Positions 5,534-64,000 of a stretch of 64,000 nucleotides of DNA are shown here, in pieces. Every line of letters starts with the position of its first letter. Within the stretch, counting starts at the first letter, position 1. A model generated the notes under the pieces. The model worked only from the letters and a program-made list of their open reading frames with translations, was not told the DNA's origin and did no database searches. Origin of the DNA: an uncultured Thermoplasmata archaeon (GTDB taxonomy: Archaea; Thermoplasmatota; Thermoplasmata; RBG-16-68-12). Made by a program: the position numbers and the translations under genes. Location: positions 58,961 through 122,960 of the forward strand of contig CAVYJM010000012.1 in NCBI GenBank assembly GCA_963768855.1, in the 5' to 3' direction.

Positions 5534-6397
5534 TTAAGAGCTTTTCGGACGTGTCGACCGCCGTTTCTGCGCCCGCCACGAGAACGCGTAGCCCACCACG
5601 TACAGGAAAAGCATCGGCAGGGCGACGAAGAGCATCGTGACGCCGCTGCCGTCCGGGGTGATCAGGGCGCCGAAGACGAAGATGCCCGCGGTGGCGATGC
5701 GCCAGTGGCGCTTCCAGAAGTCCGCGGACACGATCCCCAGCGCGGACAGCCCGTACATCAGGACGGGGAGCTGGAACGCCAGGCCGAAGGCCAGGCTGAA
5801 GAGGAGGACGAAGTCGATGAAGTTGTCCCCGTACAGGACGAGGAAATTGGCCCCCATGATGTTCTGCACGGAGAAGAGGAGGTTGAACGTGAAGGGCAGC
5901 ACGATGACGAAGCACATCATCACCCCCGCCAGGAACAGGACCACGACGGGCAGGGTGGCCCGCACGAGGAGCCGCTTCTCCGAGGGCCTCAGCGCGGGGG
6001 CGACGAACTGCCCCAGCTCGTACACGATGACCGGCGATCCGATGACGACGGCCAGGAAGAAGGCGACCTTGAACATGACGACGTAAGCGTCCCAGGGTTG
6101 CTGGAAACTGAAGTTCAGCGGGAGCCCGCCGACCCGGTCCGGGACGAGGTAGGTCTTCATCGCCAGGAAGAACCACGTGGCGACGTTCGGGCTCGTCGGG
6201 CCGAGGGCCGGCACGAGCATCGGGATCTGGGTTCCGCCGAGCGACACACTCCCGATGCCCGTCGTGAGGAAGAGGGCAAACAGGATGAGCACGGCGATGA
6301 TGATGACCTTGAGTCGTCGGCGGAGCTCTTCGATGTGGTCCCAGAAGCTCATCTGCCCCTGGTCCTCGAGGTCCTTCTTCGCCGGGCTCGCGCTCAC
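5534..6397 (-). CDS. tatC: Twin-arginine translocase TatC
   Basis: MSFWDHIEELRRRL, FQLPVLM, GALITPDG; TATAAG lies about 29 nt upstream of GTG 6397. Confidence 0.93.
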   Translation of the reverse strand: MSASPAKKDLEDQGQMSFWDHIEELRRRLKVIIIAVLILFALFLTTGIGSVSLGGTQIPMLVPALGPTSPNVATWFFLAMKTYLVPDRVGGLPLNFSFQQPWDAYVVMFKVAFFLAVVIGSPVIVYELGQFVAPALRPSEKRLLVRATLPVVVLFLAGVMMCFVIVLPFTFNLLFSVQNIMGANFLVLYGDNFIDFVLLFSLAFGLAFQLPVLMYGLSALGIVSADFWKRHWRIATAGIFVFGALITPDGSGVTMLFVALPMLFLYVVGYAFSWRAQKRRSTRPKSS

Positions 6398-46742: not shown

Positions 46743-46826
46743 GCCCAGGTCGCCAAGCCCGGTATGGCGGCGGTCTCGAAAACCGCTGGCCGCAAGGCCC
46801 CGCAGGTTCAAATCCTGCCCTGGGCG
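46743..46826 (+). tRNA. tRNA-Ser (anticodon CGA), no encoded CCA
   Basis: Acceptor GCCCAGG/CCTGGGC; anticodon arm GCGGT-CT CGA AA-ACCGC; variable arm GGCC-GCAA-GGCC; T arm GCAGG-TTCAAAT-CCTGC. CTTAAG box about 30 nt upstream. Confidence 0.97.
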
Positions 46827-46859
46827 CTCTTATGGAGGGCCGAGTGCGTATTTTCTCAG

Positions 46860-47870
46860 TTATGGCTCAACCCGAACCACGGTCCGCGCCTCGCGGGCCT
46901 CGCGGAGGATGCGGAGGCTGTCTTGGCGCTTCATCCGACCGTAGTGCTTCAGGACGGTCTCCAGTTTCGTGTGGCCCGTGGCGTCCATCACGGCCTCCGC
47001 GGCGGCCCTCTCCCTGTAGCCTCGGGCGACGAGGGCGTCGATGCTCTGTTGTACGAAAGTGCTCCTGAAGGTCTTCAGGCCACGGAACTCGACCCCCGAG
47101 GTCTCCTGAAGTTGCTTCTTCAACTTGCGGAGCATCGCGGCGCTCCAGTAGTTCAGGGTCCCGTCCCTCCAGCGCATTGGGATGAGGGCCTCGTGGCGTT
47201 GTCCACCGAGGAACGCCCCGCGCTCGGCGAGGAAGTCGAGGATGGCGCCGCGGGCGGCGTTGTCGATGGGCACCTCGCGCTGTCGCCCGTAGGACCCCTC
47301 GCCCTTTGGGTGCGCCACGAGGATGCTCATCTTGCCCAAGTCGATGTCCGTGACGCGGGCCTGTCGAATCTCGCTCGGGCGCAATCCAGTCGCGGGCAGG
47401 ATGACCACGAGGAACCGCGCCACGGAGCCCCACCACCCCTCCATCGCCTCGGCCCCACGCCCCAGCAGGGCCAACTCGTCATCGCTGAGCGTCCTGATGT
47501 CCTTCTGGGGCGCCGTAGGTCGCCTGTAGAGCCTGCGTTGCTTGGCCACATCGATACAGGGGTTACCGAGCCACCCGAGGAACGCCGCGAGCACATCGAG
47601 GCGCTTATTGATGGTCTCGACATCCAGCCCGAGGCCGCTCCTCGTCGGCGCCTGCTTCCATTCCTGTAGGAGAACGCAGAGTTCGGGCCACGAGAGCTTC
47701 TCGGGTTGCGTGGTGCCGAGCCTCCCCGCCCGCCTCAGCCTCCAGAGGTCGCGGCCGATTTTGCGGAGGTCGCGCCCGTATCGGTCGAGCGTCGAGGGCC
47801 TGTAGTAGGCCAGGATTTCTGGCACTTCGAGAAACCGCCTCACCGCGGTCAGGAAGGGCTGGCGCGACAC
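46860..47870 (-). CDS. Tyrosine recombinase/integrase (start may be further upstream, e.g. TTG 47945)
   Basis: TGLRPSEI (Arg), HPKG (Lys), LKTFR (KxxR), TGHTKLETVLKHY (His, Tyr). Confidence 0.92.
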   Translation of the reverse strand: MSRQPFLTAVRRFLEVPEILAYYRPSTLDRYGRDLRKIGRDLWRLRRAGRLGTTQPEKLSWPELCVLLQEWKQAPTRSGLGLDVETINKRLDVLAAFLGWLGNPCIDVAKQRRLYRRPTAPQKDIRTLSDDELALLGRGAEAMEGWWGSVARFLVVILPATGLRPSEIRQARVTDIDLGKMSILVAHPKGEGSYGRQREVPIDNAARGAILDFLAERGAFLGGQRHEALIPMRWRDGTLNYWSAAMLRKLKKQLQETSGVEFRGLKTFRSTFVQQSIDALVARGYRERAAAEAVMDATGHTKLETVLKHYGRMKRQDSLRILREAREARTVVRVEP

Positions 47871-48815
47871 GGCGCGTGGCCTTCCCCTTCGACGCGGCGG
47901 CGGTCTCTCGGCTCCTGTCCCGTGGGTGTTTCCTTCGGCTTCCAAAGTCGAAGCACGGGGGTTTTCTCCTAGAGACAAGCGAAGTGTCCCGTCTTCGCTC
48001 GCCTTCGGAGAATCTATCGGCCTGCGAGAAGTTAATGCCTTCGGCCTCGGGCGACGGCGCCCGCGACGGCGGCCTAGCGAGAACAACGGCGTGGCGGTAC
48101 GGCTCCCGTGGCCGCCCGCCTCGCGTCATACAGACCCTTGCCCTCGTCGCGGCCGTGGACCGGCCGTGGCTCGCCGAGTATTGCCATCAATCCTTCTAGG
48201 CGAAGATCCCCTATAAACAATCGGGTCACGGCGCTCTTCGATCGGTGCGCCCCTCCGTGGGGCCCTCCGGTTATGACCGCAGATGCTAGAGAGGCTGAGC
48301 AGCATCCCGACCGTGGCTCGACCTGTCACGGCAGCCCGGAAATCTTTTTTATGCAGTTTCACGATAAAAGTGCTCTCCTGAGGAGCCGATTAGGACGCCT
48401 CTCCGGGCCTCTCTGCGTCGAGAACGGCTCTAATGCGTTCTAATGCGTTCCCAGAGGCCTTCCCGGGGCGCTTTCGGGAGGTTGGTCCCGGGTGAGGACA
48501 CCCGCGCTGCGAGCCCCCCATCTTGCGGTCCTCGGCGATGGTCCGCTCAGGGACGCGTCCTCCGGAGGGTCGGGTGCTATCAGTGTCAGTGATGACAGTG
48601 TCGCCGGAGCCCTTATGCGTCGGTACATCAATAGTATCGTGAGACGTCTGCGAAGCGAGCCCGGGGACGCCGCGAACGTCTCAACAGCCCGCCCGGGTGG
48701 CTTCCGTTTCTGGATCTGAAACAGGACGTCAATCTCGCGCTAGACCGATATCAGACCGAGTTCGGACACGTATCCGGGCAAGTAGAAGCCTGAGAGGTCC
48801 TCCTGAGGTGATGCA

Positions 48816-50922: not shown

Positions 50923-51978
50923 TTGGTGGCGAAGAGGACTTCAAGCGTTCTTTACCGGAGTGGCGGAGGGAGGGTACTCCTCTGCCCGAACCGCTCAAAA
51001 GTTGTAATGCCGACGTACTTTCCTGCTATCTCAGGAACAGGCACGAACGCACTCCCCCAGGATCTAGTCAGCTTGGTCGCGACCAGCTCCTACCCCCGGA
51101 TTCTCGTTTCAGCCTTCGACTTGACGGCTCTGCAGGTTGATCACCAGAGGAAGGCGATACACGACTTGGTCCAGTTCAGGAAGAGCGGCGGAGTGGTGCT
51201 GCTCGATAGCGGTGCTTTTGAGAGCTTCTGGCTCCGGGGGGACAAATGGACCTTCAAAACATACTCAGAAGCAGTCCGCCGGTTTCCCTCGGACTTCTAC
51301 TGCTCGTTTGACCAATATCACGTCCGAGGTCGGCCACGCAAGCCAGTTGGGATGCGTCTCGTCCAGGTGGCCGACTCCTCTGCAAAGATAAGGCCCGATG
51401 CAACCTGCCTCTTCATTGCCCGTGGGCCAACACCGAGCCGCCTCGTGACCGCTGTCAAGAGCCTGATCGATCGCCGCTCGGTTCCAGTGGAAGCGATAGC
51501 TGTCCCTGAGCGTGAATGCGGGCCAAATCTTCTCGCGAGGTCGAAGACCGTGGCTCAGGTGAGGTCTGTCTTGTCAGAGAGATCGGAAGGAATCATTCTA
51601 CATCTGCTCGGATGTGGCCACCCCAAGTCACTCGCGATCTACGCCTACTGCGGTGCCGACTCATTCGACAGCCAAGATTGGTCGCAACTGGCGGTCGATC
51701 GGAACACGCTTGAATTTGTTGACATAGCGCACCTTGAGCTCGTTCATTGCAAGTGTGGCGTCTGCAGCCGCATAAAGGTTGACAACTACCAGAGAACTCT
51801 CCTCCACAATCTCCTGTTCTATCAGGATTTCGCGATACAGCTACAGCGTATGATTCGGGAGAACACAATGCGAGACTTCTTGATGGCGAGGTTGGGGGAA
51901 CCGTTTCTGAAGAAGCTCGAGACGGCGGTTAGCATATCAGCTCCCTCTTCTCTAGTTTCCACAAATGTCGGAAATTGA
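50923..51978 (+). CDS. tRNA-guanine transglycosylase-fold protein (Cap10-like)
   Basis: MPTYFPAIS, VLLDSGAFE, CSFD, HLLGCG, GADSFDS and a C-terminal HCKCGVC...LLHNL zinc site; no PUA domain. Confidence 0.85.
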   Translation: MVAKRTSSVLYRSGGGRVLLCPNRSKVVMPTYFPAISGTGTNALPQDLVSLVATSSYPRILVSAFDLTALQVDHQRKAIHDLVQFRKSGGVVLLDSGAFESFWLRGDKWTFKTYSEAVRRFPSDFYCSFDQYHVRGRPRKPVGMRLVQVADSSAKIRPDATCLFIARGPTPSRLVTAVKSLIDRRSVPVEAIAVPERECGPNLLARSKTVAQVRSVLSERSEGIILHLLGCGHPKSLAIYAYCGADSFDSQDWSQLAVDRNTLEFVDIAHLELVHCKCGVCSRIKVDNYQRTLLHNLLFYQDFAIQLQRMIRENTMRDFLMARLGEPFLKKLETAVSISAPSSLVSTNVGN

Positions 51979-51984
51979 GGTGGA

Positions 51985-52698
51985 TTGGCCATGAGTTGGG
52001 CGAGCCCAGCATTTGTTCCGACCTCTGTGTTGCTCAGCTATTCAACTTTGAACGATGAGCAGCAGTGCCAAGAGTCGTGGACGACTATGAGCGAGCATCG
52101 ACTCTGGCGGGAACTCACACTATGCATTCTCTCTTCGAACACCCTCTTTGAGACCGCCGCCTCCGCGACCAAGTGTCTAGAGAAACGCGGCTTGCTGCGT
52201 AGGCTTAGACAGGAGCCAGACCCGAGGGTCGCTCGTACCGTCTATCGGGTTCTGGCTTCACCGCTCTTCCTGCCCACCTGTCAAGATGGCCGATTGCGGC
52301 GTTATCGATTTCCTCGAACGAAGAGTGACCAGCTCTTGGGGGCCGCCCGATTGGTCTATGTCGATCCCGATTGCGACGGGCTAAGGGAGATCCTTTCCCG
52401 CATGAGCTCTGGAGAAGAAGCTAGGGAGTACTTCCGATCGCATGTGCCCGGCATGGGAATGAAGGAGGCGTCTCACTTCCTCCGGAATGTGGGTTTTGCA
52501 ACCGACTTGGCAATCATCGATGTTCACATGAAGCGCTTCCTCCAGAGCATCGCAGCCATTCCGGACGAGATTCTCACAAGTACGAGGAGGAGGGACTACT
52601 TGAGACTCGAAGAATTGGTACGAGATATTGCAGAGGCAAACGACCTCTCCCTTCCTCTTTTCGACCTTGCAGTGTGGGAGTGTTTCAGGTTGGGATAG
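51985..52698 (+). CDS. HhH N-glycosylase/DNA lyase, 8-oxoG glycosylase type (Cap11-like)
   Basis: ELTLCILSS, RFPRTK, GMGMKEASHFLRNVG, AIIDVH. Confidence 0.88.
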   Translation: MAMSWASPAFVPTSVLLSYSTLNDEQQCQESWTTMSEHRLWRELTLCILSSNTLFETAASATKCLEKRGLLRRLRQEPDPRVARTVYRVLASPLFLPTCQDGRLRRYRFPRTKSDQLLGAARLVYVDPDCDGLREILSRMSSGEEAREYFRSHVPGMGMKEASHFLRNVGFATDLAIIDVHMKRFLQSIAAIPDEILTSTRRRDYLRLEELVRDIAEANDLSLPLFDLAVWECFRLG

Positions 52699-52702
52699 TC
52701 GC

Positions 52703-53371
52703 ATGACAATCGTTGCACTCGCTTCGGGCGGTCTCGATTCCTCAGTGATGATGGGGCTTATGAAACTCGAGGGAATTGATGTTCTGCCAGTGCACGTTGA
52801 CTACGGGCAACGCAGTGAAGCACAGGAATGGAAGGCGTGTCAAGCTTTCTGCACGACAGTAGGACTGAAGGACCCAGTGAGATTCGAGTTGCCTGCCCTT
52901 GGTCAGATTCCGAGTGGCCTGACCAACCCTCGAATTGATGTCAATTACGCCTTTTTCCCAACGAGGAATCTTCTGCTGCTCACGATCGGCGCAGCTTTCG
53001 CGTATTCGAAGAATGTCGATACGGTCGCGATAGGATTGATTGGGAACGCTGTGTTCCCAGATCAGACAGAGAGCTTCAGGAAGCAAGCTGAATCTGCAAT
53101 CGCGACAAGTGTTGCAAGAAATCTGAAGGTTGTGGCCCCCCTGCTCCTTCTGGACAAGGGGGAAGTCATGAGGCTGGCCCGAGCGGCGGCGTTGCCAATC
53201 GACCTGACCTACTCTTGTCACGTTGGAAACGTGGAACCTTGCGGCGTGTGCGCTGCTTGCCGCGAAAGGAAGGCCGCCCAAGCAGTTCCGGAATCCAGGG
53301 ATCTCAGCAAGCAGACTAGGGAGGCGCGGATACAACTCGGCACCGCGATCCGAGGTGGTCATAGTGGGTAG
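52703..53371 (+). CDS. QueC-like ATP pyrophosphatase (Cap9-like)
   Basis: SGGLDS, YGQR, PTRNLLL, FPDQ, TYSCH...PCGVCAACRER. Confidence 0.92.
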   Translation: MTIVALASGGLDSSVMMGLMKLEGIDVLPVHVDYGQRSEAQEWKACQAFCTTVGLKDPVRFELPALGQIPSGLTNPRIDVNYAFFPTRNLLLLTIGAAFAYSKNVDTVAIGLIGNAVFPDQTESFRKQAESAIATSVARNLKVVAPLLLLDKGEVMRLARAAALPIDLTYSCHVGNVEPCGVCAACRERKAAQAVPESRDLSKQTREARIQLGTAIRGGHSG

Positions 53372-53855
53372 CAGTGGGCATGTCGCTGCTTTTGGTCGGT
53401 CGGTCTCTGCATCTCATCGGATGTTCCGAACTGGAATCGATGAAGCTGAGCAGGCAACGCGAGGGCCGCCCAAGGTGAGAAATGTCTTCATAAGTTTTCA
53501 CGTCGGGGACGAGGCGCAAGTCAATCTTCTTCGATCACAATCGAAGAACGAGGACTTCGGCATGGAGTTCAGGGACTACTCCGTCAAAGAACCGTTTGAC
53601 GAAGCGTGGAAGCGCAACTGTGCTGATCGGATTGGACAGACATCCGTGACCATCTGCATGATCAGTCCCGACACCGCAAGTAGGGAGGCAGTCAATTGGG
53701 AACTCGAAGAGAGCTACCGACAGGGACATCAGGTGGTCGGCGTGCGGATATATCGCGATCGGAGCGACCCCGTGCCCGAACCGATTCTCCAGCACAACAG
53801 TCGAGTAATCTACTGGGATCGAGATGAGTTGAACAGATATGTCAAACACCAATGA
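53364..53855 (+). CDS. TIR domain protein (DUF1863/ThsB-like) with N-terminal extension starting (M)GSSG
   Basis: NVFISFH, DYSVKEP, TICMIS, VNWELEES (catalytic Glu at 53700), VVGVRI. GTG 53364 follows a GAGGTG SD and overlaps the QueC-like stop. Confidence 0.88.
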   Translation: MGSSGHVAAFGRSVSASHRMFRTGIDEAEQATRGPPKVRNVFISFHVGDEAQVNLLRSQSKNEDFGMEFRDYSVKEPFDEAWKRNCADRIGQTSVTICMISPDTASREAVNWELEESYRQGHQVVGVRIYRDRSDPVPEPILQHNSRVIYWDRDELNRYVKHQ

Positions 53856-54402
53856 ACCGGGTGGGGGTGTCTCAGTGAAGCCTCGCGACGAGTCAGATAA
53901 CCTGTTCCAGATTCCGAAGTCGCTCTATGGACCTCTTTATGAAGGGCACCTTCTCGAACAGTACAAGATCGCTGTTCAGATGGCCGACAATGTCAGCGGC
54001 CGGAGAATTACTGCGAACGAATTCTTCCTTGGCGTGAACTCTGTACTTGCCTCTCTGGCAGGTGCCGCAGTTGCTTTCGGAGGTTCTGCCCAGGGTGGAC
54101 TTCGTAGCGTGTCCGTCTCCCTAAGCGTAGTCGGCATCATATTCTCAGCAGTTTGGATCCTGACCCTGTCGACATACAGAGAGTTGAATCGTGCCAAATT
54201 CGAGGTCATTAACCGACTAGAACGGCATCTGCCCGCGGCACCATTCCTCGCAGAGTGGGAGTCGATAAGTCCAGCCCCATCCCGGGGGAAGGTCAAGCCT
54301 ACCCGGTACAGGGGTCTGACATCAGTCGAATCACTCGTTCCCGTAGGATTTGTTCTGCTATACGTGATCCTTCTGGTTGGAATCCTCCTAGGGGCGCTGT
54401 AG
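53839..54402 (+). CDS. Small 3-TM membrane protein, putative pore-forming effector
   Basis: EQYK...RR..AN.FF..N, W...Y..LN.AKF.VI..LE..LP, EW and a C-terminal TM. Overlaps the TIR stop. Confidence 0.8.
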   Translation: MSNTNEPGGGVSVKPRDESDNLFQIPKSLYGPLYEGHLLEQYKIAVQMADNVSGRRITANEFFLGVNSVLASLAGAAVAFGGSAQGGLRSVSVSLSVVGIIFSAVWILTLSTYRELNRAKFEVINRLERHLPAAPFLAEWESISPAPSRGKVKPTRYRGLTSVESLVPVGFVLLYVILLVGILLGAL

Positions 54403-54716
54403 ATTCACCACGGCATCGAAATTCGTACCTCGAGGGCTTGATGCCACGGAGGGACGCTCGGACAGTGCGGGGGCGAGATGATCACGCTGACGGGGGCGGA
54501 GACCCAAGCCTTCCTGCGCCTTTCTGCGCTCGGCCGAGGCAGCGGGCCGTGTGGAGCGCTTCGAGACGTGAGGCCCCCCACCCTGTCACGGGACCCTACC
54601 GCATGTACGGCCCGCGCCCAGACACTGAGCAAACGAACGGGCGCTCTCGGGCAGGTGTAAGAGGGGGCTAAAACAAGCAGCTGGGAAATGACGCATCCAT
54701 GGCGTTGAGAAACAGC

Positions 54717-55127
54717 CTAGCCTACACCGACTATTTGTGCTGTGTAGTTGTGTGTCTGGCAATCATTGACCTCGAACTGCCCCGTCTTTTGCTCTGATTG
54801 ACCCGCCTGCACGAGGAAGTCAGACTGCCCTACCTGTGCCCCATCAGACAGGAAGGCTACTGTGGCGTGTCCGTTTGTCATGCCACTGTTCCTCAGGATG
54901 AACGTCGCCTTTACCATTTGGTGATGGCCGCCGGTCGGGAAAATCCACCAGTAGTCGGTCTGGCAAGCCCCGGTGGTGAACTGCGGCACCGTCGTCTTCT
55001 CAATCTTGGGGCCGATAATCGGGGTGACCACGTTGGCGGTGAAGTAACCGGCTAGGTCGAGCGCAGTCAGCCCAAAGACAACAGTCACACCTATGGCAAC
55101 CACAAAGACGATTTTGACGTCGGCCAT
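54717..55127 (-). CDS. N-terminally anchored extracellular protein with a beta-rich (Ig-like) domain
   Basis: Hydrophobic N-terminus, two Cys and the pattern LRNSG..G.A.V. Confidence 0.65.
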   Translation of the reverse strand: MADVKIVFVVAIGVTVVFGLTALDLAGYFTANVVTPIIGPKIEKTTVPQFTTGACQTDYWWIFPTGGHHQMVKATFILRNSGMTNGHATVAFLSDGAQVGQSDFLVQAGQSEQKTGQFEVNDCQTHNYTAQIVGVG

Positions 55128-55227
55128 ATTCGGAACCCGTCCCTTCAGCTATGTGTGCTCTAGTTATGCTCTCGGCGGGGTGGGTGAAAGTGCTCGCCTG
55201 GCGCGTCATGGCTGTGGACCGTGAAGT

Positions 55228-55261
55228 GAAGGTGCCCGCCCTTGCGGGCGGGCGTGAGGGG
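55228..55261 (+). repeat. 34-bp palindromic direct repeat, copy 1
   Basis: GAAGGTGCCCGCCCTTGCGGGCGGGCGTGAGGGG; 33 of 34 bases identical to copy 2. Confidence 0.9.
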
Positions 55262-55295
55262 GTGGCTCTATAGAGCTGCAGGTAGATTGGTCACC

Positions 55296-55949
55296 ATGTC
55301 AGTCAGGGACTCAAATGACATCCTCACTGATGTCGAGGCTTCACTGCGAACCACATGGGACGTGGAAGGCTCGGGGTTCACGGATGCGGACTGGAAGGCG
55401 CTTTACTTTGACGCGATAGCGGGCCCGTGCTTTGATCGAGGCTACAGCGTCGCGTGCACTCTAACCAAGAGGCGCGACCATGAGCCCCCGATCGCCAAGA
55501 CGCCCGCCTTTGACAAGCACCGAGAAATGTTCGCCCTGAAGGAGCAAGCCTTGGACGTCCTCGCGATTGACCCCGCGCATTTGAAGCCGGTTCTCGGGGC
55601 AGAAGTTGAGTGGTCCGCGAACCGGAACCATCACACTAAGGAGAACGACGAAGTGACACGCAAGGTGTGGGGTAACGCAGTTCCTGCGGAAGGGTAGCTT
55701 GCCGAGGTCTTGTATGACCTGGGTCGACTGCTTGCAGTCAATCCCCCTCACATGGTTCTCGTCACATACCCGCCTAGAAAGGAAGGGCCGGCCCCGGTCA
55801 GTGAGCAAGTGCGGGCCATGTATGAACGAGCTTCTCATGGACGAGCGATGGGCACTTTGCTGCTCATGGTAGACAACGATCAGGGACAGCCTTATTTTGA
55901 GACCTTTTCCCCGCAAACTCTCGGCAAAGAAGGAATCATGACGGGCTGA
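55296..55949 (+). pseudogene. PD-(D/E)xK-like nuclease gene split by an in-frame TAG (55695-55697)
   Basis: LDVLAID...AEVEWS precedes the TAG and YDLGRLLAVNP.HMVLVT follows it in the same frame. Confidence 0.6.
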
Positions 55950-56001
55950 AGGGGGCACAGGCGGTGACCTGATGATTAACACCCGTGCGAGAGAGAAGAG
56001 C

Positions 56002-56035
56002 GAAGGTGCCCGCCCTTGCGGGCGGGCATGAGGGG
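56002..56035 (+). repeat. 34-bp palindromic direct repeat, copy 2
   Basis: GAAGGTGCCCGCCCTTGCGGGCGGGCATGAGGGG; 9-bp stem TGCCCGCCC/GGGCGGGCA with a TTGC loop. Confidence 0.9.
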
Positions 56036-56519
56036 AACCAAGCCAAGACCAGACTGCGTACCTGGGGCGGGGGTCTACCCGACCATCACACCTGAGTGAA
56101 ACACCCCGATCGGGATTCGAACCGGAGGGGAAAGGGCCGCCCCGTAGGGCGGCATGCGGGGACAGACTGGGAGACGACGGTCCTACGCCGAGGCACTAAA
56201 CCCGCTGAATATCGCCTCCGGCCGCATGGAGTAGTTATGAATCCGGACGGATTTGAACCGGGTCCGAAGACAGGGGAGCTGGGCGATAATGTTTCCAAAA
56301 GGGGACGGCGAACCCCCACCAGGTTCGAAGTCATATGGATTCGAACCTTCCGCGACGCAACCCGGAATCTCGCTGTGATGAATGAGTGAAGTCATCCGAA
56401 TGCTGGACCCTCTGTTTCCACGCCTCAAGCCTGGCGCTGCGGTCAGCTGTCCCGCCCCACAATCAGGCGGGCCGCGACCGCAAAGTAGGATACGAGCCGC
56501 GTCCATCTGACCCGCGCTG

Positions 56520-56834
56520 ATGCCCCAACGGAAGCTCGTTGCGACGCGAGTGGTCATGGAGGATTACGTCGAGCCCGCCATGGCCTATTACGAAGAAGTC
56601 CTCGGCCGGATCGCTCCATACTTCTTCGCGCCCAACCTCGCCCGGCTCGTCGCGAAGACGCTTGAACGCTGGCACTACGACGGCTCCGTAGTCTTCTCGA
56701 AGGTAGACCCGGAGCTCCAAGTGCGAGCAGAGTCCCTCTGGACCGAGATGATCCAAGCAGTCGCGCGAATGCCGGATCGTTATCCAAACACTGCGCAAAA
56801 GAACGATGGTGAGACACACGAGAGCAGCGATTAG
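56520..56834 (+). CDS. Hypothetical protein (possibly a gene fragment)
   Basis: Host-like codon usage and natural composition; no recognisable motif. Confidence 0.5.
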   Translation: MPQRKLVATRVVMEDYVEPAMAYYEEVLGRIAPYFFAPNLARLVAKTLERWHYDGSVVFSKVDPELQVRAESLWTEMIQAVARMPDRYPNTAQKNDGETHESSD

Positions 56835-56910
56835 TCCGCGCAATCTTCCTTGTGTCGGGCGGGCTCATCCTGGCCGTGTGGACAAGGACCGGCGGCTCGA
56901 GGCGCCATGG

Positions 56911-57798
56911 ATGACCCACGCTTCCATGCTCGTGATCGTCCTTTTCTGGGGTCTGGCGTTCGTCGCAATCAAGGCCGCCGACGAACACATGTCTTGGATC
57001 ACCCTCACGTTCCTACAGTTCTTCCTGGTAGATTTGCTTCTCGTGGGATACTTTGCCGTGCATAAAGCCGACCGTGTTCTTCCAGCGAGGAAGGACTGGC
57101 TTCCCCTTCTCGGCCTCGGATTTCTCGGCTTTACGGGAAACTACTTTCTCGTCAATCTGGCGGAATCAAACCCTGACGTCACCGCCGGTACGGCCGCAAT
57201 CATCATCGCCTCCGATCCTGCGTTCATCGCCCTCTTCGCGATTCCGGCGTTGAACGAAAAACTCACGCGCCTCAGGTCCGTGGGAATCGGCCTCGCTCTT
57301 GGGGGTCTTGCAGTGATGATCTTCTTCGCCCATCCAGGGGGCAGGTTCAGCTTTGTGTTCTCCACGGGTGCCCTGGAGGTCGTCCCGCCCGCTGCCTTCA
57401 CGGCTTTGTACCTCGTCCTCGGTCGGAAGTACCTGCAACGATACCGCCCCTTCGTCTTCGTCGCGTACACAATCATGCTGGGCACACTCCTCGCCTTCCC
57501 TGTCGTGGTCGCAAGCTGGCCGACCTTCGTCAATGACATACGAACGATGGGTTGGGAGGGTTTCCTTCCCGTCCTCTTCCTCGCTGTCTGCCCAACATTC
57601 ATCGCCTATGGCCTCTGGTTTCGCGCGATTGAGCGTATGCCTGCGGCAGCCGCTGGGGCGTACATCTATCTAAGCACTCTCATTGGAGTCGTAGGCGGGA
57701 TGGTGCTCTTGGGGGAACCACTAACGGAAGCGATGGTGGTGGGCGGCGCCATGGTCATCGGCGGAGTCGTCCTCGCCCAGCAGCACAGGAAACGTTGA
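56911..57798 (+). CDS. EamA/DMT family transporter
   Basis: VLFWGLAFVAIK, about 10 TM segments in two repeats, LNEKL, LLGEPL. Confidence 0.9.
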   Translation: MTHASMLVIVLFWGLAFVAIKAADEHMSWITLTFLQFFLVDLLLVGYFAVHKADRVLPARKDWLPLLGLGFLGFTGNYFLVNLAESNPDVTAGTAAIIIASDPAFIALFAIPALNEKLTRLRSVGIGLALGGLAVMIFFAHPGGRFSFVFSTGALEVVPPAAFTALYLVLGRKYLQRYRPFVFVAYTIMLGTLLAFPVVVASWPTFVNDIRTMGWEGFLPVLFLAVCPTFIAYGLWFRAIERMPAAAAGAYIYLSTLIGVVGGMVLLGEPLTEAMVVGGAMVIGGVVLAQQHRKR

Positions 57799-58207
57799 GA
57801 CGGCGTCGCGTTCAGTGGAACCCACGTGTGAGGTGTGCCGCTGCGACCGGTCGCGCGGGTTTGGAGGGCAGGAATGTCGTCGTCATGCTCTACACAGAGT
57901 GTATTGCTCCCACGACCACGGGTTTCTCTGCCCAAATCTCTGCCCTTTGAGTCACCACCCCTTGGCTCTGGTTCCCCGTCATCAGCACTCTGGGAGTCTG
58001 GCCACTAGGCACCATGGCGTTGCGGGCGTCGGCGAAAGAAAGGTGCTGCACTCGCGAGGTAATGCGACTAAGGGTGAGCGAATAGCGCTCGCATTCTGAC
58101 CCTGGTTTCGCCAGAGATTGAAGACCTCAGGCCTCCACGAGCCTGAGGACAAGCCATCACAGCAAATCTTTATTCCGTAGTTCTCCTCCCTGTCCACTAG
58201 TGGTCCT

Positions 58208-58609
58208 ATGAAATCTGTGCCCAACCTCAAGAACCATCCCAAACCCGGGGGTCCCTACTCGCATTGTGTCGCCGCAAACGGCTTCGTGTTTATTAGCGGA
58301 CAGACACCCATCGCTACAGGAAGCAAGCCGGGAGCGTGGGTCGCGACAGACATTCGTGGACAAACACGCCAGTGCCTGCGGCAGATCGAGTCTATACTGA
58401 AGGAGCTCGGGCTACCGCTGGCATCCGTTGTCAAGACTACCATTTTCCTCGGAAACCCCAGTGATCCTGCAGCAATGAACGAAGCGTACGCCGAGTTCTT
58501 TCCAACATATCCTCCGGCGAGATCTACAGCGAGGCTCGGTGTCAAGCTTCCGGGGTTGCTGCTTAGCATAGACGCCATAGCAGTGACCAGCGCCCGCGGA
58601 ACGGACTAG
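58208..58609 (+). CDS. RidA/YjgF family protein (second copy)
   Basis: GPYSH, FISGQTP, QTRQCL, VVKTTIFL, PPARS. Confidence 0.9.
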   Translation: MKSVPNLKNHPKPGGPYSHCVAANGFVFISGQTPIATGSKPGAWVATDIRGQTRQCLRQIESILKELGLPLASVVKTTIFLGNPSDPAAMNEAYAEFFPTYPPARSTARLGVKLPGLLLSIDAIAVTSARGTD

Positions 58610-58973
58610 TCTCGCAGGCGTCGACATCCAAACCAGAAGGATGCCGTGCCCTCCTTCCCCCTCCGGGATCCGGTGTGTCGGTCGATATCTATCGGTAAGC
58701 GGGAGTTGCAGGTCAGCTGGGCACGTCCTGATGACTCAAGAGCGGTCTCTTATTCCCTGTGCAACCGCCTCGCGCCCTGCTCCTCGGGCTGTGGACGACA
58801 TAGGATTGCCGGGTTCTCTTCTCGGCTAGCTGGTACCTTCCCGCCTCTATTTGAGGTCGCAATGGCTGCTCGAGTGAGTGGCGTACCTGTTCACCATCGA
58901 AAGGTGTAGGGTCGATGTCGTCCCAGACAAGCCGTCGCAGGGGGTGGAGATAGTGCTATGAAATGGAGAGTGA

Positions 58974-60185
58974 ATGCGTCCCGCCGTGGCCATCAACCAC
59001 CGAGTGCTTGTGGCTAGCTCGATTTACCATTTCACGAACGACGGGGCTGTGACGGTCCTCGCCGGCCAGTTGGCAATCTTGCAGGTTGCCTTCCAACTGA
59101 GTCCCTTCGAGACAGGAGTGCTTGTTGGCACTGCCCTGCTCGTAAGCGCAGTCGCTCAACTCGTCATTGGTGTGCTGTCCGATCGATTGAATCCGTTCAA
59201 GACCCTGCCGTTTGGTCTGGCAATTCTCGGGTTTGCGTCGTTGCTGGTTTCGATGTCGACTGGCTTCGTGACATTGCTTGTGACCGTGGCCGCAGCACGG
59301 ATCGGGGCGAGTTTCTACCACCCTGTGGGACTCGCTTGGATTGGCCGGACATTCAGGAACGGGTCAATCGATCGCCCGATGGGAATTCAGTCATCGTTAG
59401 GAGACGCTGGCGTCATCCTGGGCCTTGCCACTGGCGCCGCTCTCGGCGTCCGATTCGGTTGGGGAACTCCGTTCATCCTTTGGGGAACAGTCAACCTCGT
59501 GGTCGCAGGTTGCGGGGTTGCCTTGGCTCCGCACGCCGAGCGGCCATCGTCGCGTGGTCTTCGTTTGCAGTGGAGCGAAGCCCGCAACGCGTTCAGTGCT
59601 CTGCGAGTCTGGCTCCTCCCAACCGCGGCGGGCTATGCGTGTTACAGCATTGTGGCGTATTTCGGTCCGATTCTTCTTCATGCAAAGTTCGGCCTCAGTG
59701 TAACCGCAGCGGGCATCGCAATCGCGCTTTGGATTCTCGCTGGTGCTGTCGGTTCGTTCTTCTTTGGGAAAATGAGTCGCTATCTCGGGCGATACAGAAT
59801 CGTTACTACCTCCTTTGCGCTAGTGGGGCTAGCCAGCGTTGCGGCGGCACTCTTGGAGAACGTGGCCCTTGTGCTGGCCGCACTCTGGGGCCTCGGATCG
59901 ACTGTCTTTCTAACATTCCCAGGAGTGTTCTCATTTGCTTCTGAGTCAGGTCAGAGGCAAGTACAAGGAACCACCTTTGGACTCGTCTTCTTCGTTCAAC
60001 TTGTCGGAGGCGCAATAGGTTCGTTTGTCGCAGGAGTACTTGGGGAATACTTCATGGCCGTCGGGAGCCTCCAATTCACGATTCCTTTCTTGGTCTCCGC
60101 CGGTTTCGGTTTAGGTGGATGCGTATACTTGGGCCTAGTAAGGAAGCGCATCAGCGTCTATCCCTCTGGAAGTGAGAGTACTTGA
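58974..60185 (+). CDS. MFS transporter
   Basis: HFTNDG, GVLSDR, GASFYHPVG; about 12 TM segments. Confidence 0.9.
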   Translation: MRPAVAINHRVLVASSIYHFTNDGAVTVLAGQLAILQVAFQLSPFETGVLVGTALLVSAVAQLVIGVLSDRLNPFKTLPFGLAILGFASLLVSMSTGFVTLLVTVAAARIGASFYHPVGLAWIGRTFRNGSIDRPMGIQSSLGDAGVILGLATGAALGVRFGWGTPFILWGTVNLVVAGCGVALAPHAERPSSRGLRLQWSEARNAFSALRVWLLPTAAGYACYSIVAYFGPILLHAKFGLSVTAAGIAIALWILAGAVGSFFFGKMSRYLGRYRIVTTSFALVGLASVAAALLENVALVLAALWGLGSTVFLTFPGVFSFASESGQRQVQGTTFGLVFFVQLVGGAIGSFVAGVLGEYFMAVGSLQFTIPFLVSAGFGLGGCVYLGLVRKRISVYPSGSEST

Positions 60186-60365
60186 ACTTGGCCATCAGCG
60201 CCTCGGCTACTGTCGAGGCCGCGCACGCTTCCCCCGCAGCTTCGGAGTTCAACCCGGTTACTGTCCTATCTGAGCGAATGCCAACTATGGAGAGGACCCG
60301 GCCATCGTCGGGGAAACCAGCAAGCCTAGGTCGGCCATGACCGTACCGTAAAGGGGGGCCAGCAC

Positions 60366-61760
60366 ACGTCGGTTTTGATACGAAATGGGATGGTTGCAAC
60401 ACCCACTTCGCTCTTCGAGGCAGATATCCTGGCCGAGGGGGGAAGAATAGTAAAGATAGCCAAGACAGGAATCCGGGAGAACGCCGACACAACAGTTGAC
60501 GCAACCGACAAGATAGTCGCTCCGGGGATTATTGACTCGCATACACACCTCGAGTTGAGGTTCGCGGGAGCGGGGACGAAGGACAGCTTCGAATCAGGGA
60601 CAAGGGCCGCGGCATTTGGGGGGGTGACGACTCTCATCAATTACGCAATTCCAGCTCCAGATGAGCGTTGCCTACCCCGAATAGACCGTGATCTGGAGTC
60701 GGCCCGAAGACAAGCGTGGATTGATTTCGGAATCCACGGGGTCATTACTGAACCGGTCCCGGATCCTATCGAGGAACTGAAGAAATATGTCAGCGCAGGA
60801 GTGCCCAGTTTCAAACTGTTTACGACGTACCGGGGCGCAGGCCTCATGTCTGACGATGCGACGTTGCATCGCGTCTTCTCGCTTCTCGGGCAGGTGAACG
60901 GGTTGCCAGGAGTGCACGCCGAGAACGATGCGATTGTTGAAAGGCGTACTCAGGAGCTCATCCGAAGGGGCCGAATCGGATCTGAGTTCTTTCCAGAAAG
61001 CCGTCCAGACTTCAGCGAGGAAGAGGCGGTCTCGCGGGCTGCTTTTTTTGCAATGCTCTGCGACTCGCCCCTGTACATCGCGCACCTTTCGACGCGACGT
61101 GCACTTGCGGTGGTTCGAGCGCAACGGGCGACGCAGCGGCGATTGTTCGTGGAGACCTGTCCCCACTACCTCACGCTAACCGACGAGAAGTATCGTGGTC
61201 CGAGCGGCATCCAGTACATGATGAGCCCTCCTCTCCGCCACACCAGCGATCGGACAGCGTTGTGGCAGGGCTTGCTCCGCGGGGACATCGATTTCATCTC
61301 GAGCGACCATGTGGCGTTCGACCGCGACCAGAAGGATCCTGGACAGGGGGACTTCTCGAAAGCACGCCATGGAATTGCGGGAATTGAGCTGCTTCCAGCC
61401 ATCATGTACTCCGAAGGCGTCATCCGACGGGACATGTCCCCCCAGAGTTTTGTGCGCTTGACTAGCTACAATCCCGCGCAGATTTTCGGGCTCTACCCTC
61501 AAAAAGGGAATATCGCGGTAGGCGCCGACGCCGATTTGGTAGTGATTGATCCACGCAAGGAAGTGACAGTCCGCTCATCTGAGCTGCACATGAATGTCGA
61601 CTACTCCGTTTACGAAGGAATGTTGCTGCAAGGGGTACCGACTGCCACTGTCAGCAGGGGGGAACTCATTGTCGAGGATGGACAACTGTACGGCAGTCCA
61701 GGGCGGGGCAAGTTCCAGGATAGGAGGCTGACGCGCAGCTTGACGCTCGACAGCTTGTGA
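60366..61760 (+). CDS. hydA: Dihydropyrimidinase/D-hydantoinase; predicted ACG start (TTG 60375 alternative)
   Basis: PGIIDSHTH, AAAFGGVTT, SFKLF, VHAEN, IAHLS, ETCPHYL, SSDH. Confidence 0.92.
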   Translation, partial: TSVLIRNGMVATPTSLFEADILAEGGRIVKIAKTGIRENADTTVDATDKIVAPGIIDSHTHLELRFAGAGTKDSFESGTRAAAFGGVTTLINYAIPAPDERCLPRIDRDLESARRQAWIDFGIHGVITEPVPDPIEELKKYVSAGVPSFKLFTTYRGAGLMSDDATLHRVFSLLGQVNGLPGVHAENDAIVERRTQELIRRGRIGSEFFPESRPDFSEEEAVSRAAFFAMLCDSPLYIAHLSTRRALAVVRAQRATQRRLFVETCPHYLTLTDEKYRGPSGIQYMMSPPLRHTSDRTALWQGLLRGDIDFISSDHVAFDRDQKDPGQGDFSKARHGIAGIELLPAIMYSEGVIRRDMSPQSFVRLTSYNPAQIFGLYPQKGNIAVGADADLVVIDPRKEVTVRSSELHMNVDYSVYEGMLLQGVPTATVSRGELIVEDGQLYGSPGRGKFQDRRLTRSLTLDSL

Positions 61761-61767
61761 TGATGTC

Positions 61768-62211
61768 ATGACGCGAATACTGCTGGAGGCATCCAAGGGA
61801 GGCACGCTGGAGATTCTTCCTGATGGAGACGCCAATCGCTTTTACCTCCTCCTAGCGACGGCTCCCCCGCACTCGGTTCACTTGTTGCATGTGTTCTGGT
61901 CGGGGGAGGCCCTTTTTTTCCTTCATGATTTCCACACACCGCCGACTCACGAGGAAATGACAGAAAAGCTCGAACCCGGCAGCGTTGCGTGGGTCCCCAA
62001 CTTGGGAGAAGTAGTTATCGCCTACGGCACTGCGGCGCCCCGCGACCAGCATGGCAAAATAACAGTGGCGAGGCTGGGTAGAATACCAGAGGTCACCGTC
62101 CTGCGTGAAGTTGGACGCCGAGTGTGGCTGCATGGCGCCGAAGAAGCTAGACTCGTGGTGACGCCGAGCGAGCCGGCCATGAACGGGAAAAAGCATTTGT
62201 ACCAAACCTAG
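61768..62211 (+). CDS. Cyclophilin-like fold protein (DUF3830-like)
   Basis: LLHVFWSGEA and T...EPGSVAW pattern. Confidence 0.65.
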   Translation: MTRILLEASKGGTLEILPDGDANRFYLLLATAPPHSVHLLHVFWSGEALFFLHDFHTPPTHEEMTEKLEPGSVAWVPNLGEVVIAYGTAAPRDQHGKITVARLGRIPEVTVLREVGRRVWLHGAEEARLVVTPSEPAMNGKKHLYQT

Positions 62212-62223
62212 TTCGCTTGCTCC

Positions 62224-63333
62224 ATGGACGGGCGCCAGTTCCTGACGGTCGAGGATCTCCACAGGGTTGTAACGGGGGCTACGATAATCGGTTCAGGCGG
62301 CGGTGGCCCGTCCGCAAGCGGAGAGCTCGTCGTGGAGGCCGTTGGCAAGGTTGCGAGCCGGGTGCCGCTCTGGTCTCTAGGCGAGGTGCCTGATGAGGCT
62401 GTCGTCGCCGCGGTGTGCGGTTTTGGATCTCCCGAGGTCCTTCTCAAGAAGGTCAGTGTCATACAAAACGTGCTCGCATTGGAGACGCTTGAACGGGCAA
62501 TCGGGAAGAAAGTCGACTACCTCATCCCTTACGAATCTGGCGGGTACAACAGTCTAGTTCCATTCCACGTCGCCGCGTCGAAGGGGCTTCCCGTGTTGGA
62601 CTGCGACGGCACCGGAAGAGCCGTTTGCGAGTGGTACATCTCAATGTTCGAGGTCCACCGAATCCCCATGTGTCCTTTCGCTCTTGCCGACGACCAAGGC
62701 CACTCCGCCGTGATCTATGCTGACAACACAGTTGATGCAGATAAGTACGGGCGCGCCATTCTGCGTGAATTCGGCTTGTCGGCCGGCACGGCGGAGCACG
62801 TGATGTCTGGGGCAAAAGCACGATCCGCAATGGTTCCAGGGATGATCTCCATGGAGCACGAGCTAGGCGCCGCGATGGAAGCCGCCATGGCTAGAGGGCA
62901 TGATTCACTTGACGTCGTCCTCGAGAAGACAGGCGGCTTCCTGCTTGTGGAAGGAAAGGTGACGGCAAAAGAGCTGCGCACCTCGCCGGTTGGGTCAGAC
63001 TACGGTCGAATTGAAGTGAAGGGAAACGGCAAAGGTGGGCGAGGGGTCTTGCAGGTCTACTACAAGAACGAAAGCATCCTCGCCCGATGGCCCGATGGAA
63101 CGCCTGCAGCGATGCTTCCTGACCTCATTTCCTATCTCGACCGCGAAGGTAGACCGATGACAAACGCCGACTTGAAGGAAGGGATGGATATCCGGGTGTT
63201 GGGTATCCCGATCCACCCAAAGTGTCGCGCACCGGAAGCGCTGCCGCTGTATCGAAAGGTCTTGAAGGAGACTCTCGACTTCGAGAGTACCTACGTCAGC
63301 GTTGAGCGTCTTCAGGGCCAATCTGGGGCGTGA
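62224..63333 (+). CDS. DUF917 family protein
   Basis: GATIIGSGGGG, ESGGYNS, PVLDCDGTGRA, NESILA, PDLI. Confidence 0.88.
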   Translation: MDGRQFLTVEDLHRVVTGATIIGSGGGGPSASGELVVEAVGKVASRVPLWSLGEVPDEAVVAAVCGFGSPEVLLKKVSVIQNVLALETLERAIGKKVDYLIPYESGGYNSLVPFHVAASKGLPVLDCDGTGRAVCEWYISMFEVHRIPMCPFALADDQGHSAVIYADNTVDADKYGRAILREFGLSAGTAEHVMSGAKARSAMVPGMISMEHELGAAMEAAMARGHDSLDVVLEKTGGFLLVEGKVTAKELRTSPVGSDYGRIEVKGNGKGGRGVLQVYYKNESILARWPDGTPAAMLPDLISYLDREGRPMTNADLKEGMDIRVLGIPIHPKCRAPEALPLYRKVLKETLDFESTYVSVERLQGQSGA

Positions 63334-64000
63334 GGTCTGCAAGGTGAAGTAGGAGTTTCGCCATCCTTGAGATGCCGCTAGAGTAATCGGAAACGCGCAT
63401 GTTCTCCCGCGGGCCATGCATATTGCAGTCATCAGCCGCCGCAGGTATCCAATAAGTTGGCAGATCCAGTATCTCATGGAACAGGTAGTCCGGGCCGCTC
63501 CCTTCATGCCAGGGAAAAACGACGATGCCGCTTTCATCCGTCCGTTCCAGGGCTTCGATGATCAGCTTCGTTGTGCGCAGGCTGGGTCCTGTCTGTGATG
63601 GCGGAAATGCCGTAGCTTTCCGAATTTGGATGTCTTTGAAACCGGTAGCAACCGCATACTCACGAAGGAGTGACAGAATTGCGTCCGGCTTCTGGTTCGG
63701 CAACAGGCGAAAGTCCACTCGAGCAGCAGCCCTATTCGGAAGAACCGTCTTGAAGCCTGGGCCATGGTAGCCCGACTCCAGTCCGGCGACATTGCACGTC
63801 GTTCGACCCAGCAGGTTCCTGTAGTAGTTCTGCTCTGTGACGCCGGGACGGAGATGCTCCAGCTCTGTCGCTTCGAATTCAGGTGTCGGGAGCTGGTCTA
63901 TCAAGCGACTCGACTCATCATCAGCTATGACGTCGGCATCGAATCCGGGAACCTTGCATGTTCCATCGGAACCTCGAAGCGTAGTGAGGAAAGTGACGAG
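63296..64000 (-). CDS. M20/M25/M40 metallo-hydrolase, 5' part outside the window
   Basis: Frame is open to base 64000; KTVLP..AAARVDFRLLPNQ and HGPRENM. Confidence 0.85.
   Translation of the reverse strand, partial: LVTFLTTLRGSDGTCKVPGFDADVIADDESSRLIDQLPTPEFEATELEHLRPGVTEQNYYRNLLGRTTCNVAGLESGYHGPGFKTVLPNRAAARVDFRLLPNQKPDAILSLLREYAVATGFKDIQIRKATAFPPSQTGPSLRTTKLIIEALERTDESGIVVFPWHEGSGPDYLFHEILDLPTYWIPAAADDCNMHGPRENMRVSDYSSGISRMAKLLLHLADLTPQIGPEDAQR

Follow-up and report, generated by a model that had tools for sequence, protein, structure and literature searches.

In type IV cyclic oligonucleotide-based antiphage signaling systems (CBASS), the cGAS/DncV-like nucleotidyltransferases (CD-NTases) universally carry an N-terminal extension that starts with M(G/S)G(G/S)GG; after removal of the methionine, Cap9 makes an N-terminal 7-amido-7-deazaguanine (NDG) on G2, and either a G2D substitution or deletion of the motif abolishes defense (Wassarman et al., Science 389:1347, 2025). 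Cap10 binds the modified N-terminus, the complex of Cap10 with the CD-NTase CdnD depends on the NDG made by Cap9, and the CdnD tail together with its helix alpha1 docks on both Cap9 and Cap10 (Wassarman et al., Science 389:1347, 2025). Similarly, QatB starts with MGTS, and its G2D substitution abolishes defense (Gao, Wassarman and Kranzusch, Nat Commun 2026, PMC13279940). Here we analyze a stretch of 64,000 nucleotides from an uncultured Thermoplasmata archaeon (GenBank assembly GCA_963768855.1, contig CAVYJM010000012.1, positions 58,961 to 122,960; hereafter the window), in which the gene of a ThsB-like TIR protein with a Gly-rich N-terminal tail stands in one operon with genes for Cap10-like, Cap11-like and Cap9-like proteins. 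That Cap9 modifies G2, that Cap10 binds the modified N-terminus and that QatB begins with MGTS had been stated in a first-pass annotation of the window, and the papers agree with it on all three.

Thoeris operons with cap9, cap10 and cap11, together with AlphaFold 3 (AF3) models of TIR on Cap9 and on Cap10, were presented in a December 2025 preprint, where the ipTM scores in a Pseudomonadales example were 0.62 for TIR with Cap9 and 0.79 for TIR with Cap10 (Yirmiya et al., bioRxiv 10.64898/2025.12.03.692087). The N-terminal motif is not described in the text of that preprint. We found no further primary paper linking Cap9, Cap10 and TIR, and TIR is absent from a review preprint on the QueC family (PMC13082051).

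The tails of this TIR family closely fit the published deazaguanylation site M(G/S)G(G/S)GG at the extreme N-terminus of the protein; that of the window TIR reads (M)GSSG, a rare variant with Ser at position 3, with removal of the methionine assumed. We consider it likely that Gly2 of this TIR would be deazaguanylated by the Cap9-like protein of the operon and handled by its Cap10-like protein, as in type IV CBASS. The first-pass annotation had gone further and proposed that a modification tag grafted onto a TIR makes a new substrate class. The fit of the motif and the linkage to Cap9, Cap10 and Cap11 speak for the graft, but the claim to novelty falls to the earlier preprint of Yirmiya et al.

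The TIR gene and its N-terminal tail

The features of the TIR gene are as follows (positions within the window, all on the forward strand).

53352 to 53357 (+): Shine-Dalgarno-like GAGGTG, 6 nucleotides before the TIR start (sequence)
53364 to 53366 (+): start codon (GTG) of the TIR gene; the gene overlaps the TAG stop of the QueC-like gene (sequence; ATG at the homologous position in the relative L050)
53367 to 53402 (+): flexible N-terminal tail, residues 2-13 (GSSGHVAAFGRS), with Gly2 as the predicted NDG acceptor after Met removal (AlphaFold 2, family motif)
53403 to 53456 (+): helix predicted at residues 14-31, F21 and E27 being conserved (DSSP on the AlphaFold 2 model)
53478 to 53855 (+): ThsB-like TIR core (residues 39-163) plus stop codon (PF08937, PADLOC, Foldseek)

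The sequence around the TIR start reads ccGAGGTGgtcataGTGggtagcagtgggcat. The GAGGTG hexamer at 53352-53357 is followed by the spacer gtcata (6 nucleotides) and by GTG 53364-53366, and the TAG stop codon of the QueC-like gene (53369-53371) lies within an 8-nucleotide overlap of the two genes (GTGGGTAG), an arrangement that had been correctly described in the first-pass annotation. Read from 53364, the gene encodes (M)GSSGHVAAFGRSVSASHRMFRTGIDEAEQATRGPPKV and then the first TIR strand, RNVFISFH, and closes at 53855 after 163 amino acid residues. The extension ahead of this strand, put at 37 residues with a free N-terminal Gly in the first-pass annotation, indeed comprises 37-38 residues, opens with (M)GSSG and is collinear with its relatives. 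Upstream, the frame is open back to TTG 53223 and contains a second in-frame GTG at 53355, inside the GAGGTG hexamer.

By itself, the pattern GAGGTG-N4-9-DTG shows no enrichment above chance, with 13 occurrences in the window versus 8.3 expected; it was dropped as statistical evidence on these counts and kept as local support only. The GTG 53364 start rises above chance because of homology and not because of this pattern. An identical hexamer is found 8 nucleotides ahead of the ATG of the Cap11-like gene (51991), overlapping the TGA stop codon of the Cap10-like gene at 51976-51978 (window 51977-51993), and its recurrence suggests Shine-Dalgarno-led translational coupling along the operon.

In the closest relative (L050, 75% identical), the QueC stop TAG is followed, after 2 nucleotides, by ATG-GGA-GGA-AGC-GGC, which encodes MGGSG. 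The TIR start overlaps the QueC stop in three Thermoplasmata relatives, same as in the window. An upstream stop stands 0-2 codons before the M-G-G start in L014-L018, L023 and L029, where the start is forced because of it, and GTG or TTG starts occur at the aligned position elsewhere in the family (29 of 116 begin with V or L). Because the N-termini of relatives, the forced starts and the ATG of L050 all agree, we place the start of the TIR gene at GTG 53364 with high confidence. The public gene call of the window TIR (P0029; window 53562-53855) has 97 residues from M67, without the tail and the first beta strand, and that of a Thermoplasmata relative (L003; P0080) has 123 residues from "MFISFH", without the tail. 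Judged against their relatives, both calls are truncations. With the tail cut off in public gene calls, automated surveys will miss the motif.

A protein search retrieved 535 relatives, mostly of 160-163 residues; from residue 2 onward, more than 100 relatives of this length align collinearly with the window tail. Among the 98 as-called relatives, defined by a recorded N-terminus 30-50 residues ahead of the first TIR strand, Gly occupies position 2 in 69, Ser in 22 and Ala in 7, and positions 3-4 are about 80% Gly. Another 18 longer calls hold an internal M/L/V-GGG at the aligned place. With them, position 2 is Gly in 85, Ser in 23 and Ala in 8 of 116 sequences (73%, 20% and 7%), and Gly is found at position 3 in 83% and at position 4 in 79%; the internal starts of the longer calls were picked by the motif, and the unbiased values are those of the 98 as-called sequences. 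The family consensus is M-[G/S/A]-G-G-[S/T/G], the Ser alternative included. The first-pass annotation had proposed a conserved N-terminal Gly; Gly holds the majority, but with Ser and Ala in its place in 29 of the 98 there is no strict Gly2. In this alignment the conserved feature is instead M-[G/S/A]-G-G, in agreement with the published M(G/S)G(G/S)GG.

The AlphaFold 2 (AF2) model, built on a 50-sequence alignment (mean pLDDT 73), shows a disordered tail at residues 2-13, a helix at residues 14-31 and the TIR fold from residue 39. The pLDDT is below 50 for residues 2-18, which indicates a long unstructured tail ahead of the folded domain. Within the helix, F21 and E27 are at least 90% conserved in alignment A1, and by analogy this helix may be the counterpart of CdnD helix alpha1. 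The TIR core matches PF08937 ThsB_TIR (1.9e-16) and is called ThsB by PADLOC; its best Foldseek matches are the B. cereus TIR 8FZ9 and ThsB structures 6LHY, 9B7D and 8WCF. W112-E113 is invariant in 50 TIR sequences, and we take E113 to be the catalytic Glu of the TIR W-E motif.

In a separate observation, the Nitrosotenuis TIRs (L015-L018; start at 5995) begin with MGGSGGS, and their first six residues after Met (GGSGGS) are those of the Rhizobiales CdnD peptide GGSGGSFGSGFDPR, which carries NDG; the identity is a low-complexity one with a comparison sequence that is a 14-residue peptide, and is no evidence of common descent.

Partner genes, genomic setting and distribution

Five co-oriented genes make up the operon, in the order Cap10/TGT-like, Cap11/OGG-like, Cap9/QueC-like, ThsB-like TIR and 8xMP membrane protein. 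The genes other than TIR and an upstream pair of features are listed below.

50923 to 51978 (+): Cap10/TGT-like protein, predicted to read the modified tail or to act as its transferase (PF01702 4.5e-9; PADLOC TGT 3.6e-17)
51991 to 52698 (+): Cap11/OGG-like HhH glycosylase (PF22175 8.4e-33; NCBIfam N-glycosylase/DNA lyase 1.3e-35)
52703 to 53371 (+): Cap9/QueC-like PP-loop enzyme, predicted writer (PF06508 4.5e-35; PADLOC QueC)
53839 to 54402 (+): 8xMP-family membrane protein, putative effector (PF24838 2e-36; 17-nucleotide overlap with the 3' end of the TIR gene)
46743 to 48086 (both strands): tRNA-Ser(CGA), 46743-46827 (+), and tyrosine recombinase, 46860-48086 (-), upstream of a low-GC tract

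The family profile of the Cap10-like protein matches arcTGT 1IQ8 (6e-16) and Cap10 9NTN (2.9e-13). Its invariant residues D95-S96-G97, D130, H227 and D249 align with Cap10 D73/S74, D122, H226 and D248; the register of the DSG motif, which the HMMER alignment had wrong, was reset by eye. In Cap10 these are the NDG-reading residues and the putative nucleophile (Wassarman et al., Science 389:1347, 2025).

The Cap9-like family retains the SGGxDS PP-loop, the Zn cysteines and an F-P-D counterpart of Cap9 Y115/D117 (F/Y-x-D motif). Profile scores against PDB structures proved uninformative for telling Cap9 from housekeeping QueC, being equal (QueC 2PG3 2e-28 vs Cap9 9NTO 1.5e-27), and the number of paralogues and the NCBIfam cut-off were used instead. 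The window protein scores 106 bits against NCBIfam QueC, under the 150-bit cut-off. The host genome encodes two further, better QueC paralogues, one of them beside QueD/PTPS (with one TGA read through in that match), as well as a full-length arcTGT; these QueC, QueD and arcTGT matches are located at G000 C6:267597-268238, C11:78724-80190 and C6:541659-542618. Since the genome has two better QueC copies and a true arcTGT, the operon QueC-like protein is, on sequence grounds, the specialized third QueC paralogue of this genome. The archaeosine/preQ0 pathway seems to be present in the host alongside the operon's QueC-like gene, and the precursor, 7-carboxy-7-deazaguanine (CDG), is plausibly available because the host has other QueC copies and QueD.

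The complex of the Cap9-like protein with TIR was predicted with a median ipSAE of 0.55, versus 0.00 for the best control, which points weakly to an interaction; the prediction returned no interface or contacts. At least 71% of contacts are common to the runs, with a partner pLDDT of 68 or more. The ipSAE mark is reached by 58 of 80 solved complexes and by 2 of 110 mismatched pairs, and scores of 0.60 or below come from only 7 of the 80 solved complexes and from both mismatches. Because the Cap9-CdnD complex has already been solved, the score may partly be a memory of it.

The 8xMP gene follows the TIR gene in the window and in most related loci, and its product is a putative effector. A loose Pfam scan of this protein gave no SLATT match, for which reason the SLATT label was not applied, and nothing relevant on the 8xMP/PF24838 family was found in the literature. 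Across the operon and on to the end of the window (51000-64000), the GC content is about 55% instead of about 66%, the change setting in at about 51 kb. Because of this drop and because tRNA-Ser adjoins a tyrosine recombinase, we suggest that the operon sits on an integrated element with its far boundary beyond the window.

A scan of species-representative genomes yielded 39 loci, which were sorted into three classes by tblastn with the five proteins of the window. Class (a) has the order Cap10-Cap11-Cap9-TIR-8xMP, found in at least 16 genomes, almost all of them archaeal (L001-L006, L009, L011-L018 and L050; L007 is partial), with hosts from Thermoplasmata, Bathyarchaeia and Nitrososphaerota and one Brocadia. 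All class (a) TIRs have the M-[G/S/A/T]-G-G tail and the conserved helix motif around F21. With the coordinates derived here, the L006 Cap10-like and L009 Cap9-like genes each show one in-frame stop, which could mean a pseudogene, a frameshift or a coordinate error; both were omitted from the alignments.

Class (b) comprises eleven loci (L010, L019-L024 and L026-L029; for example L027:4897-6867) with no Cap9 or Cap11 within 6 kb. It is a three-gene archaeal system of an MGGG-tailed TIR, 8xMP and, directly upstream, a protein of 270-330 residues that has no match in Pfam or NCBIfam but is a remote relative of TGT/Cap10 without the Zn motif (hhalign 82.7%, E 9.5e-6, 188 columns). The tail body in this class is basic (MGGGxRGxR, RGxR) and lacks the helix motif, and its genomes have housekeeping QueC only, the Micrarchaeota genome no QueC at all. 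The 8xMP place after TIR is taken by a caspase-like Peptidase_C14 gene in L023:6956-7903 and L028:6909-7868, which suggests effector swapping; L023 also has a second TIR gene.

The loci of class (c) are bacterial and hold TIR or TIR-8xMP; here the TIR protein has a short MAxK start, the tail is missing and so are the partners. Related TIRs without any Cap9, Cap10 or Cap11 partner have no tail, and correspondingly the tail-less relatives (L025, L030-L039) have none of the three partners. In the TIR-core tree the tailed proteins fall into a single group lying within the tail-less ones, and class (b) is a clade (100/96) inside class (a); the tree is rooted at midpoint only, and the direction of change is not proven by it. 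Across these loci, presence of the tail tracks presence of the TGT-like partner, and the motif tracks the TGT-like reader at least as well as the QueC-like writer.

Proposed mechanism and competing explanations

If the TIR is deazaguanylated, removal of Met would expose Gly2 at the tip of a flexible tail of about 12 residues, followed by a helix and the ThsB-type TIR. The Cap9-like enzyme would adenylate CDG, and attack by the alpha-amine of Gly2 would yield NDG. With the NDG-tagged tail bound in the nucleobase pocket of the TGT-like Cap10, the TIR would stay primed or silent, and on infection Cap10 might transfer the tagged TIR to a target; the OGG-like Cap11 would act as a negative regulator. 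The active TIR would turn NAD+ into a signal, upon which the adjacent 8xMP protein would kill or arrest the cell.

Several observations weigh against this scheme. The case for deazaguanylation of this kind of TIR is entirely comparative, and it is an assumption that this archaeon removes the Met and leaves the N-terminus unacetylated. The window motif, GSSGH, has Ser instead of the consensus Gly at position 3, and a GSS start is seen in only 2 of 109 relatives. Taken from the window sequence by itself, the upstream in-frame GTG 53355 could still serve as an alternative start. The Cap9-like protein is, by sequence, as near to housekeeping QueC as to Cap9. Finally, the MGGG start is kept in eleven loci without Cap9 or Cap11, one of them in a genome without QueC, so that conservation of the motif alone does not require a dedicated QueC writer; it is because of these loci that we hold deazaguanylation as likely and no more than that.

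The same loci are the best argument for the strongest competitor, which we nevertheless regard as unlikely: that the tail docks non-covalently, as a peptide, on the TGT-like partner, with its M-G-G-G tip unmodified or not NDG-modified, and that Cap9 and Cap11 serve otherwise, for example to make or remove a free deazaguanine ligand. In class (b), an MGGG-tailed TIR stands beside a remote TGT/Cap10 relative without Cap9 or Cap11, the Micrarchaeota genome does so without any QueC, and the clade is nested in the Cap9-bearing one. However, the Cap10-CdnD complex of type IV CBASS needs the NDG made by Cap9, and the window operon has a Cap9 with intact PP-loop and CDG-binding residues. Moreover, with its different tail body the QueC-less clade may work differently, and housekeeping QueC could supply the activity in most of its genomes.

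Distinctly less probable is that the QueC/TGT/OGG trio acts on a nucleic acid or nucleotide (e.g. in dpd-like deazaguanine insertion or repair), with TIR-8xMP merely co-located and the Gly-rich tail a linker. All three trio proteins do come from families of nucleobase or nucleic-acid enzymes, and in the Cap10-like protein the arcTGT-type Zn site is retained and the scores against arcTGT and Cap10 are equally good. Yet the tail is found only with a TGT-like partner and in none of the tail-less TIR-8xMP pairs, and the motif is placed exactly at the N-terminus, with forced starts, whereas a linker needs no such placement. The trio and TIR genes also overlap or abut in one operon across phyla, and the published precedent for the trio is protein modification. 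The least probable explanation, and a very improbable one, is that the real TIR start lies downstream (ATG 53421 or GTG 53475, the alternatives named in the first-pass annotation) or upstream (GTG 53355 or TTG 53223) and Gly2 is no N-terminus: although the frame is open from 53223, with GTG 53355 in frame, and the public call begins only at M67, that call is plainly truncated, conservation of residues 2-37 extends collinearly over more than 100 relatives that begin here, upstream stops or an ATG fix the same position in other loci, and a start at 53475 would leave a gap of 103 nucleotides where other operon junctions measure 4-12 nucleotides or overlap.

To date, one enzyme family, the type IV CBASS cyclases, has been shown to be deazaguanylated, and a case has been argued for QatB. 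The TIR family described here, with more than 100 members, carries an N-terminal acceptor motif that is lost exactly where the partner genes are absent. The model-based suggestion of the preprint thereby gains a prediction at the residue level (Gly2, +176.04 Da, G2D) and is extended to archaea. A broader reading, conceivable but doubtful, is that the M-(G/S)-G-G tail with its helix may be a portable tag-acceptor module on unrelated immune enzymes (CD-NTase, TIR, QatB), and that in archaea a stripped-down TGT-like reader may use the MGGG tail without a dedicated QueC writer. If so, an unmodified or differently modified N-terminus would be recognized, or the tag would come from another cell or pathway.

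Comparison with known systems

Like type IV CBASS (PDB 9NTN, 9NTO), the window operon has the Cap9/Cap10/Cap11 trio and an M(G/S)GG N-terminal extension followed by a helix, and the Cap10 pocket and catalytic residues and the Cap9 PP-loop chemistry are common to both. The signaling enzyme of type IV CBASS is a CD-NTase, whereas here it is a TIR, which would consume NAD+; no CD-NTase was found among the five operon genes or ten scanned neighbors, and TIR stands in the place of the cyclase. The partner proteins differ as well. The archaeal Cap9-like proteins keep the QueC loop, while the Rhizobiales Cap9 is without such features, and the archaeal Cap10-like proteins keep the arcTGT Zn site, which lies outside the region aligned to Cap10 9NTN (the alignment ends at residue 259).

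QatABCD resembles the window operon in pairing a QueC-family enzyme, QatC, with a partner, QatB, whose N-terminus is long and unstructured and bears an essential Met-Gly motif. It has no TGT-like or OGG-like partner, however, and QatB is helical, is no signaling enzyme, and its modification is only proposed. Type II CBASS and Thoeris with Cap2/Cap3 follow the same logic, in which a signaling enzyme is primed by covalent modification of a terminal glycine, but there the modification is C-terminal and is made by E1/E2-like chemistry with unrelated enzymes.

Closest are the Cap9/10/11 Thoeris operons of Yirmiya et al., which, like the window, combine a ThsB-type TIR, an effector (in the window a putative one) and cap9/cap10/cap11 in one operon. 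Their TIR is predicted to bind both Cap9 and Cap10, as the CD-NTase does, whereas the prediction for the window concerns Cap9 only (ipSAE 0.55 vs 0.00 for controls). Their example comes from a Pseudomonadales bacterium, and the window is part of a clade that is archaeal almost throughout and has an 8xMP membrane protein as its putative effector; both are predicted systems. While the architecture was thus already known, the tail's residue statistics, the forced starts, the difference between TIRs with and without a tail, the mostly archaeal spread and the host deazaguanine genes are new. A ThsB-like TIR with a W-E motif and cap9/cap10/cap11 in the TIR operon are both found here. The operon would work like type IV CBASS but is no member of it, because the defining CD-NTase is missing, and in our analysis it is best filed with the Cap9/10/11-associated Thoeris-type systems.

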